This document shows positions 42,092 to 58,740 of a DNA stretch of 64,000 bases, piece by piece (positions within the stretch are counted from its first letter, which is position 1; each line of letters begins with the position of its first letter). The position numbers were made by a program, and so were the translations under genes. This stretch comes from Bacillota bacterium (lineage in GTDB: Bacteria; Bacillota; Clostridia; Christensenellales; SZUA-584), in assembly GCA_023459495.1 (NCBI GenBank), contig JAEWTL010000118.1, positions 45,949-109,948 of the forward strand, given 5' to 3'. Below the pieces are notes generated by a model that saw nothing but the letters and a program-made list of their open reading frames with translations, did not search any database and was not told the DNA's origin.

Positions 42092-42204
42092 CCTGCCGAA
42101 CGCCCAAACACACCAGCGCGGACTTTTGAATACGCTTTAAAATCTCTTGAACGTTTTAAAACACCTTTAAATTAAAAAGGCCTCCAAAAAAGGCAGGGTC
42201 GGAC

Positions 42205-42294
42205 ATCCGGGCGGCAATTTTGCCCGGATTTGTGGCCGATATTACCCCGTTTCGGGCCCGCCGGGGGACGAATCAACCCCGGCGGACGAAACGG
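42205..42294 (-). promoter_or_regulatory. Two very stable hairpins in the 231-nt gap between the NusG-like and large terminase genes
   Basis: Hairpin 1 (42247-42294) has 8-bp and 9-bp stems: CCGUUUCG/CGAAACGG enclosing CCGCCGGGG/CCCCGGCGG. Hairpin 2 (42205-42229) is ATCCGGGC/GCCCGGAT. Neither has a clear U-tract. Confidence 0.5.
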
Positions 42295-50193: not shown

Positions 50194-50209
50194 TGCTATC
50201 GGGCTTCAT

Positions 50210-50290
50210 CCTCACTCTGCATTTTCACGGGCTGGTGACCGTCGGCTGTTAACCGGCTGCATTAAGGCAGGAGCGGTAGCGCTCCTTGGC
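50210..50290 (-). ncRNA. Twister-like self-cleaving ribozyme motif, copy A (with P3 insertion), plus 5' hairpin
   Basis: Minus strand: AGGAGCG-CUAC-CGCUCCU hairpin, then CCU-U|AA-UGCA-GCC-(GGUUAACAGCC)-G-ACGG-UCACCAGC-CCGU-G-AAAA-UGCA-GAGUGAGG. Predicted cleavage is between 50264 and 50263. Confidence 0.55.
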
Positions 50291-50301
50291 AGTTAATCAT
50301 T

Positions 50302-50826
50302 CTAAGCGGTGCCATCCTCGCTCGGCTTGGCCTCCGACGCAAAACCACTTAAAAACCAGTGCTTATCATCCTTGTTGATGTTATAAGGGATAGCCTCATC
50401 ATTCTTTTCATCGTAGCCGCCGTAATTTGTCCAGTTGTCACCATTCACAGACGTCTGATTCCACCCAATGGCTATGCAGTCTTCGTCCGCAAGTGCGCTT
50501 TCAATCACATTTGCTTGTTCTTTCAATGAAGTCTCACCCTCGAAAGCCCTGAAAGCATCAATAACCTGCTGAAAGTTTTCGCGCTTTATAAGGGCATAAT
50601 CATAGGTGGTTTGCAATGCGATCTGTTCGTACTCCGGCATCCTTTCAAATGCATCGTTCAGTTGATCGAATCCGGCCTGACCACTAAACATTGGAAAGGT
50701 TCCACCATAATATTTGTCGTATAGGAAGTTCCATATGGCGATTCCTCCACGCCACGAATTTTTAATCTCCGCAAGAAAGTATGCATCTCCTTTTTTGTCA
50801 AACCCAAACATCTCCGTATAGCTCAT
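50302..50826 (-). CDS. Hypothetical 174-aa protein bracketed by the two twister-like motifs
   Basis: GGAGGG RBS. Sequence MSYTEMFGFDKKGDAYFLAEIKNSWRGG.... I recognise no family. Confidence 0.65.
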   Translation of the reverse strand: MSYTEMFGFDKKGDAYFLAEIKNSWRGGIAIWNFLYDKYYGGTFPMFSGQAGFDQLNDAFERMPEYEQIALQTTYDYALIKRENFQQVIDAFRAFEGETSLKEQANVIESALADEDCIAIGWNQTSVNGDNWTNYGGYDEKNDEAIPYNINKDDKHWFLSGFASEAKPSEDGTA

Positions 50827-50849
50827 CCACGATTACCCTCCTTCAAATT

Positions 50850-50922
50850 CCTCACTCTGCATTACACGCGGGCTTGTGACCGCCGTCGGCTGCATTACGG
50901 GGTAGGAGCTGTCACGCTCCTA
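50850..50922 (-). ncRNA. Twister-like self-cleaving ribozyme motif, copy B, plus 5' hairpin
   Basis: Minus strand: GUAGGAGC-GUGACA-GCUCCUAC hairpin (includes the UAG stop), then CCCG-U|AA-UGCA-GCC-GAC-G-GCGG-UCACAAGC-CCGC-GUGUAA-UGCA-GAGUGAGG. It aligns element by element with the O. sativa twister core UAA-CACU-GCC-AAU-G-CCGG-UCCCAAGC-CCGG-AUAAA-AGUG-GAGGG. Confidence 0.65.
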
Positions 50923-51960: not shown

Positions 51961-52240
51961 CTGCGAAAGCCTCCTCCCGGATAAATACGTGGACTGTCTG
52001 CAAACCGTGATGTATGCCGCAGGTGCCTAAAAAGCGATATCCCGTCAGGTCCGGCGCTTCATATTCGGAGCCGAGAATGATCACGGTGTATGGCTCGGTT
52101 GCCGCCCGGTCCGAGTCGATGAGGGCGAACAACACGATGCCTTCGTGCTGCTCCATTACGCTTAGTACCTTGGCATTCTCCGGCAGCTTCACGGTCTGGG
52201 CTGCGGTAATCTGCATTGCGTACTTTTTGACCGTCATCAT
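51947..52240 (-). CDS. Hypothetical phage protein
   Basis: 97-aa ORF overlapping the MuB-like stop by 4 nt. Confidence 0.5.
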   Translation of the reverse strand: MMTVKKYAMQITAAQTVKLPENAKVLSVMEQHEGIVLFALIDSDRAATEPYTVIILGSEYEAPDLTGYRFLGTCGIHHGLQTVHVFIREEAFADGTT

Positions 52241-53178
52241 ACCGCCACCGCCAGCTTCATCTCCATATGCTTCGCCATGCCCACAAGGCCATCATAGCTG
52301 GTGTTCTCATTGTCCATCGCATTAACATAGAGGTTCATGGCACCGCGCAGAGCCTGGGCGCTGCGCGCGATCCCCAGCAGCAGATCGATTGCCTTTTCAT
52401 CTTCCAACGCCGGAAACAGCAGCTGGATGTCCTCGCGCTTGATCTGCATATAGGTGTAGACCTTGCGCTGCCGGGTGCGGTTATTGATCTGCGCGAATTC
52501 AGCGCGCTTCTTACCGCCTGCATTGTTTACCGTGTCGCTGTTTCCGATCAGCGCGATCCCCAGCGTTTGGCCGAGCTCGTCAAAGTAGTCCGACAGCGCG
52601 CGCAGCGCTTCCAGCGTCTTGATGGGCAGATGTTGGGCCTCGTCGACGATGATCACCATTCCATCCCGGAGCTTGGCGGCAAGCCCGAGCCACATCTCGT
52701 CGTTGGTACGTTCTGTGACATTGAGCTTCGCGCAAAGCACTTTCAAAAGAGCTTTAACGGTCGTTATGCAGGGGTTTAATGCCACGTATACGGCATCGTT
52801 CGGGTGGTCGCGGAAGAACTTCTTGGCGGCCATAGTCTTTCCAATCCCCGCATCACCGCATGCGATGGCCAGCCCGCCCTTCAGCTGGCAGTTTCGAATC
52901 ACCTCATAGACCTTGGTGGATATCGATGTACCCACGTACCCGCTGCTGGTAAGCTCGTACCCAGGCGATGCGGCGGCAGCTTCCTTGGTTTCGAAATAGC
53001 TGATCAGCTTTGCGAATTTCGCATCCTCATCCCCTTTGTATACGCCGCGGCGCAATGGGGACATGGTCGACGATGGTATTCCTACGATTGCGCAGGCCTT
53101 GTTTTGGCTCCCAACGGTCTTTTCCAGCTCCGCGAACTTCGTCAGGGCCCATTGCTTTTGCATGCTTGTTAACTCCAT
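52237..53178 (-). CDS. MuB-like AAA+ transposition ATPase
   Basis: N-terminal HTH-like region, Walker A GDAGIGKT and Walker B MVIIVDEAQ. Start trimmed to ATG 53178 (GGAGGAGG RBS). Confidence 0.8.
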   Translation of the reverse strand: MELTSMQKQWALTKFAELEKTVGSQNKACAIVGIPSSTMSPLRRGVYKGDEDAKFAKLISYFETKEAAAASPGYELTSSGYVGTSISTKVYEVIRNCQLKGGLAIACGDAGIGKTMAAKKFFRDHPNDAVYVALNPCITTVKALLKVLCAKLNVTERTNDEMWLGLAAKLRDGMVIIVDEAQHLPIKTLEALRALSDYFDELGQTLGIALIGNSDTVNNAGGKKRAEFAQINNRTRQRKVYTYMQIKREDIQLLFPALEDEKAIDLLLGIARSAQALRGAMNLYVNAMDNENTSYDGLVGMAKHMEMKLAVAV

Positions 53179-53194
53179 ATGCAACCTCCTCCAT

Positions 53195-55162
53195 TTATTC
53201 CGAGCGGCGCTTCGCCGCATTACGGTTCATTTTGCTCATGTCGATCAGCACGCCCGTGGTGCCTTGACCGACAGCCTCCTGCATGGGCATCTCTTCGCCG
53301 GATGTTACCGGTACGATGACCTTGGGCTGCTGGATCAGCATACCTTCCTTGCCAGCGTGCGCCCGGCGCACAGCGAGGTCCAGCATGTCGATGCTGCGGG
53401 CGGCGGGTACCGCACCCTTCAGCGCGGCAAGCTCCGACTTCACAGCCTTGTGCACGCGGCGTACGGTCTCCTGTGCCACCTTGACGGCTTCCGGATTGTC
53501 ATTAAACAGAACCATCGTGTCTCGCGCCATGGGTACCGTTCCGATGTAGCGGTCCGTCTCTGCGTCGTAGATACGCACGCTGTATAGGTTCGCGGGGTTG
53601 TAGCGGACGTATATCTCGGTACCCTGCAGCCGCCATGTATCTTCGTCCCAGTAATAGAGCTTTTCGTCGCAGATCGTGATATGCACACCGTTTTGACCAA
53701 CCTTCTGCTTACGAGTGCTGCGCATCAGCATCAGGTTGAGATCATCCGCAGAGGCTTTGCGCTGCGCCTGAATATACTCATTCCAGATGTCGATCCGGCG
53801 CTTACCATGGTCCTTTTCTACCGCGCCGCCATAGCTCCCGACGTTAAATTGGCCGTCGATGAAGTCCGAGATCATAACGCGCAGCTCGCCGTCCAGCGGT
53901 ACCAGTCCTTGCTTGAGCGTATATTTCAGGCTCTCCGGACGCTCCATCACGTTTCCGCCGCAGAATGTCTCAAACAGCCTCGATATCGTTCCTTTAAAGG
54001 TGTTAAAAGTCCGTTCAATAGGCTTCGCCTTGGCATTACGCACCAGGGCGTTGCGCAACTCGATCCCCAGCCGGGTAAATATCGGCGGCGGATCGGATAC
54101 AAGGTCTTGGCTCTTCCGGCTCCTGTGGCCGCGCCCGGCAAGGTCGTGGGTGAGAAACTCGGAGCCGTTATCGAAGTAGACAACTTTCGGGATTCCAAAG
54201 CGTAGGATTGCGTGCCGTAATGCCAGAACGGTGGACTGGCTGCATGGATTGTCTGTCAAGTTCCATCCGACCATGACTCCGCTTCGGGCGTCGATGAACG
54301 CTGTCAGGCTCATGCGGTGCTCCACCTTGCTGCCATCATCCCGATAGGAGAAGATATCCAGCGTATGGTTGTCCGCCACCCAGTAATCGTTTGGAAAAAG
54401 CTCATCGTACATCCGGACGATATATGGCGCGCACCGGTCGGAAAATGCCTTGTTGCCCTGTCGACCCAATGTGACCACGGCAGCGGCGATCTTCTCCGCC
54501 TGGCGGCGGAAGGTACGCTCACCCGGAAGGTCTGGCACCAGTTCCGGCGAGAACTCGGAGATCCAGTATTGTGTCAGCTGATAGCATTGGCTAATCGAAA
54601 GCTGCCGTTCGTCCAGATATGCGGTCAAAAACCAATCCCAGGCTTCTTTCGGAATCCCGCATTGGCCACGGTTCCATCCGCCCCGGTGATCGATGAGGCC
54701 TTCGATGTCACCGGCTTTATATGCCGCCCATTTGCGGTAGAGGATATCTTCGCTTAGGGCGATGTCCTTATAGTGCAGTTTCATCATGCTGACAAACAAC
54801 GGATCCGCGTCAGTCTTTCGGTCATATTTAGCCCGGCAAGCCTGCCATTGTTCCAACACGTTTGTCCAAAAAGAGATCTGTTCACGTTCCGCTGCGCTGT
54901 ATTCATCGAAGCTCCGCGCCGGGCGCGCTGCCTTCGGCGCTTTTGGCGCTACAGGCAGCAGCGACTCGCCCTTTAGGTTGGAGTAGTACTTGCGCTGCAG
55001 CTCCTGCGGAAGCGAACTGGCCGGGACCATATACTGCTTGCGGTTGTTAGCCGGGTTTGAATGTTCCTGAGCATAAATAGCCCCGGTTTTGATCTGCTCC
55101 CGGATATATCGCTCGCTACAGTTCTTCAATTCGGCTACTTGTTTTACTGTCAATAGATCCAT
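53195..55162 (-). CDS. MuA-like DDE transposase
   Basis: N-terminal HTH (LTVKQVAELKNCSERYIREQI), an rve-like catalytic core (WVADNHTLD...YFDNGSEF) and a large Mu-transposase-type C-terminal domain. Confidence 0.9.
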   Translation of the reverse strand: MDLLTVKQVAELKNCSERYIREQIKTGAIYAQEHSNPANNRKQYMVPASSLPQELQRKYYSNLKGESLLPVAPKAPKAARPARSFDEYSAAEREQISFWTNVLEQWQACRAKYDRKTDADPLFVSMMKLHYKDIALSEDILYRKWAAYKAGDIEGLIDHRGGWNRGQCGIPKEAWDWFLTAYLDERQLSISQCYQLTQYWISEFSPELVPDLPGERTFRRQAEKIAAAVVTLGRQGNKAFSDRCAPYIVRMYDELFPNDYWVADNHTLDIFSYRDDGSKVEHRMSLTAFIDARSGVMVGWNLTDNPCSQSTVLALRHAILRFGIPKVVYFDNGSEFLTHDLAGRGHRSRKSQDLVSDPPPIFTRLGIELRNALVRNAKAKPIERTFNTFKGTISRLFETFCGGNVMERPESLKYTLKQGLVPLDGELRVMISDFIDGQFNVGSYGGAVEKDHGKRRIDIWNEYIQAQRKASADDLNLMLMRSTRKQKVGQNGVHITICDEKLYYWDEDTWRLQGTEIYVRYNPANLYSVRIYDAETDRYIGTVPMARDTMVLFNDNPEAVKVAQETVRRVHKAVKSELAALKGAVPAARSIDMLDLAVRRAHAGKEGMLIQQPKVIVPVTSGEEMPMQEAVGQGTTGVLIDMSKMNRNAAKRRSE

Positions 55163-55168
55163 GTCATA

Positions 55169-55229
55169 CCTGCCTCATCAGTACCGGGAGGTTATCCCCG
55201 GCAGACCGCCCGCAGGCGGTTTCGGCTTA
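55169..55229 (-). ncRNA. Type-II hammerhead ribozyme motif, copy 1
   Basis: Minus strand: UAA-GCC-GAAA-CCGCC-UGCG-GGCGG-UC|UGCCGGGG-AUAACC-UCCCGGUA-CUGAUGA-GGCAGG. CUGAUGA, GAAA, the A15.1-U16.1 pair and the GUC cleavage triplet are all present. Predicted cleavage is between 55204 and 55203. In cis, stem II is only GGC/GCC, possibly plus UAU/AUA. Confidence 0.7.
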
Positions 55230-55412
55230 TTCTTCGATTCTCCCATCCACCGTATAGCGGTGCGGGTCAGATACAGTCAAATGCTCGCCGCATACTAAAC
55301 AATCAAAGTCCCGTGTCTTAAATCCTTGATTGTGAGCTGGGAATATGACCTCTACGCGATTTTTAGCTCCACATTTCGGACATGTTGTTTCGATCTTGCC
55401 TGTCATATCCAT
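55227..55412 (-). CDS. Small zinc-ribbon protein (61 aa) bracketed by the two hammerhead motifs
   Basis: CPKCG...CLVCG, with an AGGAGGG RBS. Confidence 0.6.
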   Translation of the reverse strand: MDMTGKIETTCPKCGAKNRVEVIFPAHNQGFKTRDFDCLVCGEHLTVSDPHRYTVDGRIEE

Positions 55413-55436
55413 CGAAAACCCTCCTAAACATAATTT

Positions 55437-55507
55437 GAAACCTGCCTCATCAGTGCCGGTAGGTCGTCCCCGGCAGACCGCCCGCGGGCGGTTTCGGCTA
55501 CTGTTTC
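55437..55507 (-). ncRNA. Type-II hammerhead ribozyme motif, copy 2
   Basis: Minus strand: GAAAC-AGUA-GCC-GAAA-CCGCC-CGCG-GGCGG-UC|UGCCGG-GGACGACCUA-CCGGCA-CUGAUGA-GGC-AG-GUUUC. Stem II is GGC/GCC plus GUUUC/GAAAC. Predicted cleavage is between 55476 and 55475. Confidence 0.8.
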
Positions 55508-55677
55508 CGATATCTTCTGGCGAATCTTTCAGCCTTTAGATCGTCTATGATATCCGCGGCTTCCCGGCATGTAAGTTCATTGGCCTCTTTTTCTGTATAG
55601 TCCGCCAGATCCACTTGAAGCTGATCGATCAGTTCCTGCATATAGCTCTTCTGGCCGTCGGTGATCATAAATGACAT
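55498..55677 (-). CDS. Hypothetical small acidic protein (59 aa)
   Basis: Start trimmed to ATG 55677 (AAAGGAAG RBS). The longer ORF-track N-terminus lacks an RBS. Confidence 0.45.
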   Translation of the reverse strand: MSFMITDGQKSYMQELIDQLQVDLADYTEKEANELTCREAADIIDDLKAERFARRYRKQ

Positions 55678-55727
55678 TGCAATCTTCCTTTCTACTCTCA
55701 ACTGCGGTTCCGGCTTATCTGTTCTTG

Positions 55728-55736
55728 TGTTATACT
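55728..55736 (+). promoter_or_regulatory. Extended -10 promoter for plus-strand ORF 55759
   Basis: TGtTATACT with a weak -35 (TTCCGG) 17 nt upstream. Confidence 0.35.
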
Positions 55737-55758
55737 CATAAAAAAAGGGGTATAGCAC

Positions 55759-56028
55759 ATGCTGATTGATGGAATCGATATTATTAAAGAGGCTAACGAA
55801 TTCGCGAGCATCATGCTGAGAGAAGCTATAAAAGATAAGCCGCTTTCAATTGACCTCTACAAGCTTTTAAAATCTCCTGCCGTTTTAAGCTCTGAATATG
55901 GTAAGCGTATAGTAGACAACATTGTCCTTGGTGCTATAGCGGCCTACCATGCCCAGTTGAGAGAAAAACTACTCGAATTAGGCATTGATATCGGGGAGAT
56001 GACTTTTAATGGGTCACCCGCAGAATAG
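55759..56028 (+). CDS. Hypothetical AT-rich plus-strand ORF in the early region
   Basis: 89 aa. No competing minus-strand ORF across 55678-56005. Composition is clearly more AT-rich than its neighbours. Confidence 0.45.
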   Translation: MLIDGIDIIKEANEFASIMLREAIKDKPLSIDLYKLLKSPAVLSSEYGKRIVDNIVLGAIAAYHAQLREKLLELGIDIGEMTFNGSPAE

Positions 56029-56527
56029 CGAATACCCCCTTTACCGTCTCTGTTTTTTCGGTATATTCTAGCGTTGTTCTGCACCTAGCTTTATCGCTCA
56101 TCCGCTCCATGTCGATCATCACGCCGGACGCCGTTCCTTCCGGATCCATAACAGGGATGATCATTCTAACCTGACTCCGCTTGAACCACCGGAAGCAGCG
56201 CTCGGCAAAGCATCGTTCCGCGCTGATCGCTTCCTTAAAAAACTCTGCCACCTGATACCCGCCCTCATGATTCAAGCTTAAGACCACATAGGACATTTGA
56301 TTTTCGAGGTTGTGTGCCAGCACGTACTCGTTCATGTAAACAGCCAGCACCTCATAACCGTCAGGGAGTACCTGCCCCACAACAGGGTAGGCACGGCCTT
56401 CCGGCGTTGTGTTCAGCAACGGGCCAACCTTCGCACCGCAGACCGGGCATGTCCACTCCTTTTCTGCCGCTGCGGAAAGCATTGCTTCACCGCATATCGG
56501 GCATACACGTTTCACCATCCAAAGCAC
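56006..56527 (-). CDS. Hypothetical protein with an N-terminal zinc ribbon
   Basis: CPICGEAM...CPVCGAKV. Confidence 0.55.
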   Translation of the reverse strand: MLWMVKRVCPICGEAMLSAAAEKEWTCPVCGAKVGPLLNTTPEGRAYPVVGQVLPDGYEVLAVYMNEYVLAHNLENQMSYVVLSLNHEGGYQVAEFFKEAISAERCFAERCFRWFKRSQVRMIIPVMDPEGTASGVMIDMERMSDKARCRTTLEYTEKTETVKGVFAILRVTH

Positions 56528-56568
56528 CTCCTTCGTTTATTGCACAGCAGCCTGGCTGTGATAATCCT

Positions 56569-56961
56569 TTAAGGTTTTAACAATTGGCCAAGTAACAATG
56601 TAAGCCATACGGATATGCCTCCCGCCACAAATGGAATAATATACTCCCATGGGAGGCTGCACTTTTTTGAAGGCTGTTTTATCTCACGCCCGCATTTCGG
56701 GCAAAAACACCTAAGCTTGGGTAAACCCATAACTTTAGATGATATGAAGCCGCATTCGCACTCAATTGTCTTTATTTCCAATGCTTTGGGATCATCTTTC
56801 CCTTGCTTTGAGACACGGTACTCGTGATCCTCAGCCGCGTCGTCTGTAGAAATAATGAATCCTAAGAGTTGCGCCTCATCTTTATTAAGTCGTTTTCTTT
56901 TTATGATCATTCTGGCCTCACAAAGCGCTTCATACGTCCGCGTTGTCATAGTAATTGCCAC
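56569..56961 (-). CDS. Hypothetical protein with a zinc ribbon and a C-terminal TM helix
   Basis: CECG...CFCPKCG, then IIPFVAGGISVWLTLLLGQLL. Confidence 0.55.
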   Translation of the reverse strand: MAITMTTRTYEALCEARMIIKRKRLNKDEAQLLGFIISTDDAAEDHEYRVSKQGKDDPKALEIKTIECECGFISSKVMGLPKLRCFCPKCGREIKQPSKKCSLPWEYIIPFVAGGISVWLTLLLGQLLKP

Positions 56962-56967
56962 AGGTTC

Positions 56968-57171
56968 TCACCTCCTTTTAAATAGATCATCAATTGTTGT
57001 ATCCAGTAGGCATGCTAGCTCTGGAAGCAAATCAGTCCGGGGCATTGATCTACCCGTCTCCCACATAGCAACAGTTGACTGAGCGACGCGCAGCTTTTCT
57101 CCGAGCTGCACTTGCGTAAGCCTCTTTTTTTTACGATATTCTTTTATCTGATTCATTTTATTAAGACCCAT
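56968..57171 (-). CDS. Cro/Ner-like XRE-family HTH regulator
   Basis: KKKRLTQVQLGEKLRVAQSTVAMWETG. First gene of the early operon, divergent from the repressor gene. Confidence 0.8.
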   Translation of the reverse strand: MGLNKMNQIKEYRKKKRLTQVQLGEKLRVAQSTVAMWETGRSMPRTDLLPELACLLDTTIDDLFKRR

Positions 57172-57203
57172 ATGATCACCTCTGGTACGAAATATCGCCT
57201 ACG

Positions 57204-57300
57204 TTGATATTATATATCTACCACATTGATAATTCAATATATATATCAATATTTTATCAAAATTATATTAATCTTATTGATATTATCATTTATATTGATA
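57204..57300. promoter_or_regulatory. Operator/divergent promoter region with six TTGATA/TATCAA repeats
   Basis: TTGATA at 57204, 57226, 57277 and 57295. TATCAA at 57244 and 57255. The candidate repressor promoter is TTGATA (57277-82) - 16 nt - TGaTATATT (57296-57304). Confidence 0.55.
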
Positions 57301-57336
57301 TATTATGAGGAAAAGGGCGATCGGTAGGCGGTAATT

Positions 57337-57930
57337 ATGAGTAAATTAAAAGAACTTCGTAAACAAAAAAGGCTCACCCAAAGCGAAGTGGCTAGTTATC
57401 TGGGTATATCTCAAAACACATACTCTTACTGGGAGAATGATAAGGTGAAAATAGACAATCAGTCTTTAATAAGATTGTCTAAATTATATAATACATCCGT
57501 TGACTATATTCTTGGTAATAATTCAAAAACTCCCAAAGGTATACAAATACCCGTCTTGGGTAGAATCCAAGCCGGTATACCCATAGAGGCTATACAAGAA
57601 ATACTTGATTATGAAGAGATACCACTCGATTTAGCAAAACAAGGAGATTTTTTAGCGCTACAAATTAAAGGGAATAGTATGGAGCCGAAATTTTCTGAAG
57701 GTGATACGGTTATAGTAAGAAAGCAAGATGATATCGAGAACGGTGAGGTAGGCGTAGTTATAATCAACGGATCTGACGCTACAATAAAGCGTGTTTTTAA
57801 ACATAATGATGGCCTGTCATTGGTGGCTACTAATACTGCCTATTCACCAATGTTTTTTACAAAAGATGAAATTTTATCTCTACCTGTTTCTATCATTGGT
57901 AAAGTCGTAGAATTAAGAGCAAAATTTTAA
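57337..57930 (+). CDS. Phage repressor, XRE HTH plus S24 (LexA/cI-type) autopeptidase domain
   Basis: HTH RLTQSEVASYLGISQNTYSYWEN. S24 catalytic pattern GNSMEP ... ATIKRV. Confidence 0.9.
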   Translation: MSKLKELRKQKRLTQSEVASYLGISQNTYSYWENDKVKIDNQSLIRLSKLYNTSVDYILGNNSKTPKGIQIPVLGRIQAGIPIEAIQEILDYEEIPLDLAKQGDFLALQIKGNSMEPKFSEGDTVIVRKQDDIENGEVGVVIINGSDATIKRVFKHNDGLSLVATNTAYSPMFFTKDEILSLPVSIIGKVVELRAKF

Positions 57931-57976
57931 AACAAAAATATACTCTTTTATATCGAAAAAGCAGGTTGGTCTATAT

Positions 57977-58534
57977 TCATTTTTCTTGGTTAATATATCT
58001 ATAAAGCGTTGTCTGTGATACTCCAGACAGGCGGCAAACCTCGCTGACTGAGTGATCCCCTGAACGGTAGAGCTTCAGTGCGGTATCAATTGCGCGCGGA
58101 TTCGTGCGTGGACGCCCGCCGATCCGGCCACGGGCACGGGCGCTCTTTAGCCCCTCGTTTACTCGCTGCACAATGAGATCTCGCTCAAACTCCGCAAAGG
58201 ACTGAAATACCTTCATCATAAGGCGTCCCTGTGGCGTGCCGGTATCGAAGTTTTCCTTGATGGATACCAGTATCACGCCTCGAGAGATAAACCATTCTAC
58301 CAAATCCAAAAGGTCCCGCATGGAACGCCCTAATCGCGACCATGACTCCACAACGACCGTATCGCCTTCCCGCACTTTATCCTTAAGCCGGTTCAGCTCC
58401 GGACGGATCGGCTTCGTGCCCGTATACTTTTCCGTCAGTATCTCATCACAAGGATAGGCGGACAGCTCATCAATTTGCCGGTCGTTGTTCTGGCCCGTGG
58501 TGCTTACACGCGCATAACCATATACCTTATTCAT
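57977..58534 (-). CDS. Small serine recombinase (resolvase/invertase family)
   Basis: YGYARVSTTGQNNDRQ catalytic N-terminus and a C-terminal HTH (SVSEVCRLSGVSQTTLYRYI). Start trimmed to ATG 58534 (GGAGGTG RBS). Confidence 0.9.
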   Translation of the reverse strand: MNKVYGYARVSTTGQNNDRQIDELSAYPCDEILTEKYTGTKPIRPELNRLKDKVREGDTVVVESWSRLGRSMRDLLDLVEWFISRGVILVSIKENFDTGTPQGRLMMKVFQSFAEFERDLIVQRVNEGLKSARARGRIGGRPRTNPRAIDTALKLYRSGDHSVSEVCRLSGVSQTTLYRYINQEK

Positions 58535-58740
58535 ATCGTTCACCTCCAAAACCACTTTATCATTAACATAACTTATTGGCAATAATGATTTTGGTGATAT
58601 TTTTGGTAACGATTTTAAGCCATTTTCGGGGCCTTTTTTGAGCTCTAAAAATCTTACCTTTAACTTTAGTTTTTGGTAATCACTTTTGGCTAAAACATTA
58701 GCATCAAAATTGCCTTTAGAATACCGATTAAAACAGCGTC

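Follow-up and report, generated by a model that had tools for sequence, protein, structure and literature searches.

Gene content of the early region

The window, by which we mean the whole 64,000-nt stretch of DNA that was analyzed, contains what the first-pass annotation had described as a Mu-like early operon, and this description was confirmed by Pfam and PHROGs searches. A repressor and a divergent Cro/Ner-like regulator come first; behind them, a MuA DDE transposase and a MuB AAA+ protein are encoded on one strand. The features of the region are as follows.

57337-57930, plus strand: repressor with HTH and S24 peptidase domains (Pfam Peptidase_S24 4e-29, HTH_3)
57172-57336: divergent AT-rich promoter region
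57289-57262 and 57237-57209, minus strand: promoter-like sites in the AT-rich divergent region
56968-57171, minus strand: Cro/Ner-like HTH protein, first gene of the early operon, divergent (Pfam HTH_3)
56569-56961 and 56006-56527, minus strand: small zinc-ribbon ORFs
55498-55758, minus strand: ORF86, the upstream ORF, 86 aa as listed; its UAG stop (55500-55498) overlaps the first two nucleotides of the ribozyme
55436-55499, minus strand: type II hammerhead, copy B (Rfam RF02276, clade model R1, canonical core)
55227-55412, minus strand: ORF61, a 61-aa zinc ribbon, the cargo between copies B and A; ribosome-binding site (RBS) AGGAGG at 55425-55420
55164-55227, minus strand: type II hammerhead, copy A (Rfam RF02276, 51.8 bits; C17 at 55204)
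53195-55162, minus strand: MuA-like transposase (Pfam Mu-transpos_C 4.6e-11 and rve; PHROG 310 transposase 5e-98)
52237-53220, minus strand: MuB-like AAA+ transposition protein (Pfam AAA_22; PHROG 296 DNA transposition protein 1.7e-48)

The setting is the early operon of a Mu-like prophage in a Clostridia-type host, running rightward-to-leftward. The gene order was kept in the related loci L001-L009 and L171, and the public names of MuA homologues indicate Clostridia, Oscillospiraceae, and Ruminococcus hosts. Copy B is co-directional with its flanking ORFs. A search for terminator-like sites gave a single one on the minus strand, located upstream at 57562-57548, and none on that strand in the interval from the Cro/Ner-like gene to MuB.

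ORF86 appears in a public gene call as a 67-aa form starting MSFMITDG, and homologues of it precede a hammerhead in L002, L009, and L171. ORF61 gave weak, sub-threshold zinc-ribbon Pfam matches only and no PHROG match. A word-based search returned just the protein itself, while an exhaustive phmmer search identified 62 distant relatives, some of them domains in large proteins; no Pfam domain was found in these 62 sequences. ORF61 is absent from L171, L001, L002, and L009.

An 89-aa ORF (55759-56028, plus strand) lies antisense within the early operon, flanked by ORF173 and ORF86. The public contigs L090 and L171 have it annotated as a gene, and the early transcript would need to read through it in antisense. 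On the other side of the regulatory region, a Gin/Hin-type serine DNA invertase (57977-58582, minus strand; Resolvase and HTH_7; PHROG 125) adjoins the repressor gene, and its position should correspond to the left end of the prophage.

Identification of copy B as a type II hammerhead

The minus-strand sequence of 55437-55507 reads as written in the first-pass annotation, which had proposed a complete type II hammerhead at this position. The proposal was borne out by the Rfam covariance model: copy B matched RF02276 (Hammerhead_II) with 43.6 bits, above the curated gathering score of 37, and with E = 1.3e-5, a value that refers to the whole 64-kb window, both strands, and all 4227 Rfam families. 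A clade-specific covariance model (R1) scored copy B at 82.5 bits. When Rfam was run at gathering scores, the whole window gave two matches in all, copies A and B, and the scan of the window with the clade model found no hammerhead beyond these two. The bare core pattern CGAAA...UC...CUGAUGA occurs twice in the window, compared with 0.2 occurrences expected by chance from shuffled sequences. Copy B is a genuine member of the known family of type II hammerhead self-cleaving RNAs. It is not a novel kind of element but an RF02276 member in the classic setting of the family. The following elements were assigned, all on the minus strand and, unless otherwise stated, from the sequence.

55498-55496 with 55446-55444: stem II, GCC paired with GGC
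55495-55493: G12, A13, and A14
55492-55487 with 55482-55477: stem III, including the A15.1-U16.1 pair (A55492-U55477)
55476: C17
55475-55476: predicted cleavage site, after C17 (55476; Rfam alignment and sequence)
55475-55470 with 55459-55454: stem I
55453-55447: CUGAUGA

The core is complete (C3 U4 G5 A6 N7 G8 A9, G12 A13 A14, A15.1-U16.1, and H17), and the three stems follow the type II order, both points in agreement with the earlier reading. Stems I and III are loop-closed and stem II is open, in the Rfam alignment as well as in the minimum free energy (MFE) fold of copy B with its flanks, which is the correct hammerhead fold. The cleavage position predicted earlier, 55476|55475, was also placed correctly. 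Covariation in every stem across relatives likewise backs the type II identity; the helices around the core are 98-100% paired in these sequences, with compensatory changes.

Folded in isolation, the 64-nt core adopted a different MFE structure, with the tail GGUUUC paired to the GAAACC of the core. This pairing (GGUUUC 55437-55442 with GAAACC 55490-55495, minus strand, the latter comprising G12 to C15.3) is possible in copy B only and, according to the folding model, may represent a competing inactive conformer.

Pairing of the 3' tail

Two strands that covary in the family form a pseudoknot between the stem I loop and the nucleotides 3' of stem II, and both are present in copy B.

55461-55465, minus strand: 5' strand of the pseudoknot, GACCU, in the stem I loop (covariation)
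55439-55443, minus strand: 3' strand of the pseudoknot, AGGUU, pairing with GACCU 55465-55461 (covariation)

A pseudoknot of the stem I loop with the 3' tail was described for most type II hammerheads by Perreault et al. (PMC3088659). In the clade-model alignment of 127 distinct sequences, the pseudoknot helix was 86.9% paired and all five of its pairs showed compensatory changes, one position varying between G-C, A-U, and C-G. In a set of 15 sequences it was 82.7% paired. Complementarity between loop and tail averaged 4.99 bp for cognate partners and 3.82 bp for shuffled partners, the maximum of 200 shuffles being 4.02. For the full structure including the pseudoknot, 95.7% of the cells in the 127-sequence set were paired, with compensatory changes in 15 of 18 pairs, and registers moved by 1-3 columns gave just 19-38% pairing. 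The corresponding values for the 15-sequence alignment were 93.7%, 11 of 18 pairs, and 29-41%. Read as a pattern of substitutions, these data demonstrate that the hammerhead structure is under selection.

In the first-pass annotation, the tail had been assigned instead to a 5-bp extension of stem II, GAAAC (55507-55503) with GUUUC (55441-55437). This outer helix is present in the MFE fold of the region, as computed by an algorithm that cannot model pseudoknots, and was found not to be conserved in relatives. Flank complementarity in 83 relatives was 3.76 bp for cognate and 3.70 +/- 0.09 bp for non-cognate flanks, and copy A lacks such flanks. GUUUC is also missing in the closest relative, L171, where homology to the window stops at 55439 and the tail reads AGGUUAGAG. 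The same tail nucleotides make the covarying pseudoknot of the family, so that the two pairings compete. In view of the covariation, the AGGUU tail of copy B more likely pairs with GACCU of the stem I loop than in the outer helix.

Placement between cistrons and upstream of MuA

The hammerhead had been noted to lie directly after a stop codon, and this is the case both for copy B (UAG 55500-55498) and for most phage hammerheads. Of 75 hammerheads found by DNA pattern in viral contigs, 59 start between -2 and +5 nt from the stop codon of a preceding ORF that is on the same strand and 40 aa or longer (79% vs 3.5% at random positions). The abutment is therefore a family-wide regularity. The next start codon of phage hammerheads is mostly found 14-30 nt past the hammerhead tail. 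In copy B, the UAG covers the outermost stem II pair and the unpaired A at model position 1. The stop had been placed inside the 5' strand of stem II, which is right with respect to the overlap with this outermost pair, whereas "inside" applies only to the extended helix discussed above. Similarly, the RBS had been put 20 nt past the 3' strand; the AGGAGG at 55425-55420 begins 19 nt after the 3' strand of stem II and 12 nt past the proposed outer helix.

Nine loci (L001-L009) were gathered by transposase similarity alone (40-85% identity). In each of them a type II hammerhead is located immediately upstream of MuA and on its strand; Rfam identified eight, and the one in L006 was recognized by the clade model. 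Another 80 viral contigs were picked by a MuA profile alone (44-85% identity, 600-nt flanks), and 74 of these contain one or more hammerheads in the 600 nt preceding MuA. Every match is on the MuA strand, and in the 80 contigs no hammerhead was found downstream of MuA or antisense to it. Six loci were hammerhead-negative, three of which have less than 250 nt of upstream sequence. Many of the MuA-selected loci contain a single hammerhead in the region, not a pair, while L003 and L007 have two or three upstream copies and L007 an extra one between MuA and MuB. Recognizable MuA adjoins only about 12 of the 83 DNA-pattern hammerhead matches, which agrees with the remark by Perreault et al. that the genes flanking type II hammerheads are not constant (PMC3088659).

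A megablast search of 52200-58000 against GenBank phages gave zero matches, and the prophage therefore has no annotated close relative there. The only cultured relative obtained by protein search was the Mu-like Bacillus phage BalMu-1 (MuA 37% identical), whose first 8.4 kb, comprising the early region, contain no Rfam ribozyme match at E <= 0.1. The association of hammerhead and MuA is therefore specific to the clade and not a general feature of Mu-like phages, and Mu-like biology in general does not depend on the hammerhead.

Dense arrays of type II hammerheads were observed in some loci, with eight in about 2.4 kb in L047 (6825-9204), five in L056, and four in L025; L085 also has such an array. 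There is apparently one hammerhead per small gene in these arrays.

Copy A and its relation to copy B

The label "copy 2" given to the element by the first-pass annotation was correct, as both the Rfam scan and the repeat comparison place a second copy 272 nt downstream of copy B on the same strand. Copies A and B are 67-nt direct repeats with 88% identity, and all substitutions between them within the ribozyme are in loops or preserve pairing. The position following the ORF86 homologue holds a hammerhead copy in L171 and the MuA-proximal hammerhead in L002 and L009.

These comparisons bear on whether copy B could be a chance resemblance or an inactive relic of duplication, without current function. 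Copy B scores below copy A in Rfam (43.6 vs 51.8 bits), and a C-A mismatch adjoins the A15.1-U16.1 pair of its L171 counterpart. Against this stand the E-value of 1.3e-5 with a score over the curated threshold, the intact core, the retained pseudoknot, substitutions relative to copy A that are confined to loops or preserve pairs, and copies at corresponding positions in L171, L002, and L009, and we regard a chance match or relic as scarcely credible.

Copy A ends 2 nt ahead of the transposase ATG (55162). Its GGCAGGU, which comprises the 3' strand of stem II and the pseudoknot strand, also serves as the Shine-Dalgarno region of the transposase. The ATG is found 6-8 nt past AGGU in copy A and its sub-clade, where these two ribozyme strands, GGCAGGUGA, make up the Shine-Dalgarno region; in other sub-clades the Shine-Dalgarno is a sequence of its own, AAAGGAGG. 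The fusion is common to L001-L004 and L009 and was not seen in other sub-clades. Since one strand of copy A serves both ribozyme and Shine-Dalgarno, the active fold and ribosome binding should compete. The stretch GAGGCAGGU of copy A (55168-55176, minus strand) is the sole Shine-Dalgarno-like sequence before the transposase ATG. Sequestration of an RBS by copy B was ruled out, the downstream ORF having its own AGGAGG, and applies only to copy A and its sub-clade.

A variable cargo slot between the copies

L171, with a MuA 96% identical to that of the window, has hammerheads at the same two positions. Identity between the two sequences is 93% as far as 55439, where copy B has its 3' end, and 94% from the first nucleotide of copy A (55227) onward. 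The DNA between the copies is unrelated, encoding ORF61 in the window and two genes of 94 and 140 aa in L171. As homology ends at the inner edges of both copies, the copies bracket a variable cargo slot. In L001 another ORF of 142 aa is located ahead of a single hammerhead, L002 and L009 have no such ORF, and the close relatives examined all differed in the cargo upstream of the MuA-proximal hammerhead.

Across 87 loci, 30 of 361 distinct homology breakpoints fell within 5 nt of a hammerhead edge compared with 1.1 expected, an enrichment that is inflated because the loci were partly selected for having a hammerhead and because a conserved hammerhead extends BLAST alignments to its far edge. 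A breakpoint was held by 63% of hammerhead gaps and by 19% of other intergenic gaps (odds ratio 7.2, p = 6e-8), values subject to the same inflation. The breakpoints, the interruption of L171 homology between the copies, and the turnover of cargo would all be explained if the elements acted at the level of DNA, the ribozyme sequences of ~64 nt serving as homology boundaries for cassette recombination and cleavage being secondary or just making the cargo expressible. A pure DNA homology block, however, needs none of the core, covarying stems, and pseudoknot that are conserved here as RNA, and many hammerheads are single and unpaired. Together with the inflated enrichment, this makes a role exerted mainly through DNA unlikely, although it overlaps with the RNA-level reading set out below and the two do not exclude each other.

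A combined scheme can also be imagined, in which the ribozyme DNA provides the homology for cargo swaps while the RNA excises the cargo and leaves the transposase module undisturbed, possibly with a circular 272-nt ORF61 RNA as one product. This is conceivable, if on balance doubtful. If true, hammerheads, together with twisters, would be portable cassette boundaries in Clostridia-type Mu-like phages, and the pair described here a ribozyme-delimited cargo slot.

Other ribozyme matches in the window and in relatives

In addition to the hammerheads, an Rfam scan thresholded by E-value gave three matches to other RNA families.

50849-50901, minus strand: twister-P1 (RF03160), 42.1 bits, E = 7e-6, below the gathering score of 67.2
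50209-50268, minus strand: twister-P1 (RF03160), 56.9 bits, E = 4e-10, below the gathering score of 67.2
42197-42282, minus strand: RAGATH-28 (RF03052), 39.5 bits, E = 0.0026, below the gathering score of 45.3

The RAGATH-28 motif class was defined through its association with twister and hammerhead neighborhoods. The two twister-P1 matches bracket a single 174-aa ORF (50302-50826; PHROG 19610, which has no function assigned there). Of seven loci scanned (L001-L007), L001-L006 have twister-P1 matches downstream of MuB, as pairs in L001-L003 and L006. A twister-sister (RF02681; 57.5 bits, above the gathering score) was observed in L005 at 2885-2956, about 1 kb upstream of MuA, and the same locus has a hammerhead directly before MuA. 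The early region of L009 contains a tRNA gene (2831-2904, 51.2 bits), about 1 kb upstream of the transposase. The L009 contig is labelled as a Burkholderiales MAG, while the phage clade otherwise indicates Clostridia.

Proposed function

Given the observed family membership, structure, covariation, position, and synteny, we consider it probable that copy B is a bona fide type II hammerhead with a pseudoknot, one of two copies in the early operon, that cuts the polycistronic mRNA. Cleavage in vivo, and with it every downstream consequence, is something we infer by analogy. Tandem prophage hammerheads have been found to cleave polycistronic transcripts of roughly 2 kb in vitro and to cleave in E. 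coli (PMC3088659). Other ribozyme classes occur on the same transcripts, namely the two twister-P1 matches here and twister pairs and one twister-sister in relatives, which argues that cleavage itself is selected.

The ribozyme would be transcribed within the polycistronic early mRNA, fold once its 3' tail emerges, and cut after C55476. The 5' product would end in a 2',3'-cyclic phosphate, and the 3' product would start with the 5'-OH of U55475, the first nucleotide of the stem I hairpin. The cut of a type II hammerhead lies between the stem III and stem I hairpins, and the stop codon would therefore be kept on the upstream mRNA, with a hairpin on each new end: the upstream mRNA would terminate about 24 nt after the stop in the GC-rich stem III hairpin, and the downstream mRNA would have its 5'-OH sitting right on the stem I hairpin. 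Reasoning from topology, a hairpin at both new ends would be produced by type II alone among the three hammerhead topologies. Together with the predicted cut in copy A after C55204, a 272-nt monocistronic ORF61 RNA would be set free, and the transposase mRNA would gain a defined, hairpin-capped 5' end. Both new ends could be expected to resist exonucleases, making the cistrons independent units. In the manner of a natural ribozyme insulator, the stability and translation of neighboring cistrons would be uncoupled, and the cargo between the copies would be expressed independently of its neighbors.

A different effect on the downstream mRNA is conceivable. Collins et al. in 2007 are said to have reported that in Firmicutes RNase J1 degrades the 5'-OH product of glmS. 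As a 5'-OH can promote decay by RNase J1, cleavage could instead destabilize the downstream mRNA. A literature search on whether phage hammerheads had been assigned an established function, or connected with stop codons or Mu transposases, returned nothing beyond Perreault 2011 and a 2019 review. Because the role that hammerheads play in bacteria and phages is still called largely elusive (PMC6765202), insulation and effects on stability are what we infer for copy B.

The released RNA itself suggests another outcome. The 272-nt RNA (55475 to 55204) would have the 3' half of copy B at one end and the 5' half of copy A at the other, a geometry evident from the sequence itself, and the two could reassemble into one complete hammerhead. 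As GCC/GGC forms stem II in both copies and their identity is 88%, one half can stand in for the other. The RNA could then be circularized, or the flanking mRNAs spliced together, through reverse cleavage or by an RtcB-type ligase, leaving a stable circular ORF61 RNA or an mRNA without cargo. Perreault et al. raised this possibility for clustered prophage hammerheads, but sought spliced or circular products and detected none (PMC3088659). Tandem hammerheads of viroids and retrozymes do yield circular RNAs (PMC4918200), whereas a stem II of just 3 bp argues for weak assembly across 200 nt or in trans, and many relatives have one hammerhead only in this region. We therefore judge circularization or splicing very improbable, and simple cleavage of the early mRNA remains the preferred reading.

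Hundreds of bacterial and phage examples of the type II hammerhead family are known, and copy B itself adds one member, a correct and largely ordinary find. The setting may matter more, as the role of hammerheads, described as largely unknown (PMC6765202), could be tested unusually cleanly in this phage clade. The hammerhead has a fixed, near-universal position upstream of the transposase module and begins right where the preceding ORF stops; in some relatives it is merged with the transposase RBS, and here a pair surrounds a hypervariable cargo gene. These comparative regularities make the question of what phage hammerheads are for experimentally approachable.

Comparison with known systems

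The working principle proposed for copy B resembles that of synthetic insulators of the RiboJ type, which were engineered from the sTRSV hammerhead, a different hammerhead type, and are placed in 5' UTRs. In these, self-cleavage strips off the preceding sequence context and caps the new 5' end with a hairpin, which makes downstream expression independent of context. Copy B differs in being natural, intercistronic, and of type II, with a hairpin on both products.

With the hammerhead of PDB 8YDC, reported to be very fast, copy B shares the use of a pseudoknot as tertiary brace in place of loop-loop contacts (PMC11300833). In 8YDC the pseudoknot replaces helix II, whereas copy B keeps a stem II of 3 bp and its pseudoknot joins the stem I loop to the 3' tail.

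In arrangement, the closest parallels come from other tandem hammerheads. The type II hammerheads loc 2 and loc 3 of Desulfovibrio vulgaris lie about 250 nt apart, compared with a spacing of 272 nt here, on one strand among phage-like and HTH genes, and were shown to cleave in vivo and in vitro (cyPhyRNA-seq study, PMC8782182). The host phylum differs, and the likeness is one of arrangement. Tandem hammerheads in prophages of Clostridium scindens, Azorhizobium caulinodans, and Agrobacterium tumefaciens cleave transcripts of roughly 2 kb and, as here, punctuate a polycistronic phage transcript with one gene or short block per unit, although the bracketed genes differ, e.g. ardA (PMC3088659).

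Copy B shows no structural difference from RF02276 as described by Perreault et al. in 2011, sharing the core, the open-stem-II topology, the short stem II, and the pseudoknot (PMC3088659). The prophage context is the same, with copies flanking single genes and located near genes annotated as integrase, among which rve-domain transposase genes may be included. The near-universal placement upstream of MuA, the abutment to stop codons, and the coincidence with mosaic breakpoints, all seen here, are not stated in the text of that study, according to keyword searches of it (PMC3088659). The classic RF02276 setting is otherwise found in the window in full, a prophage in which the hammerheads cluster with twisters and a RAGATH-like motif beside a DDE "integrase", and the location of copy B between two early-operon genes of a Mu-like prophage is typical of the family.
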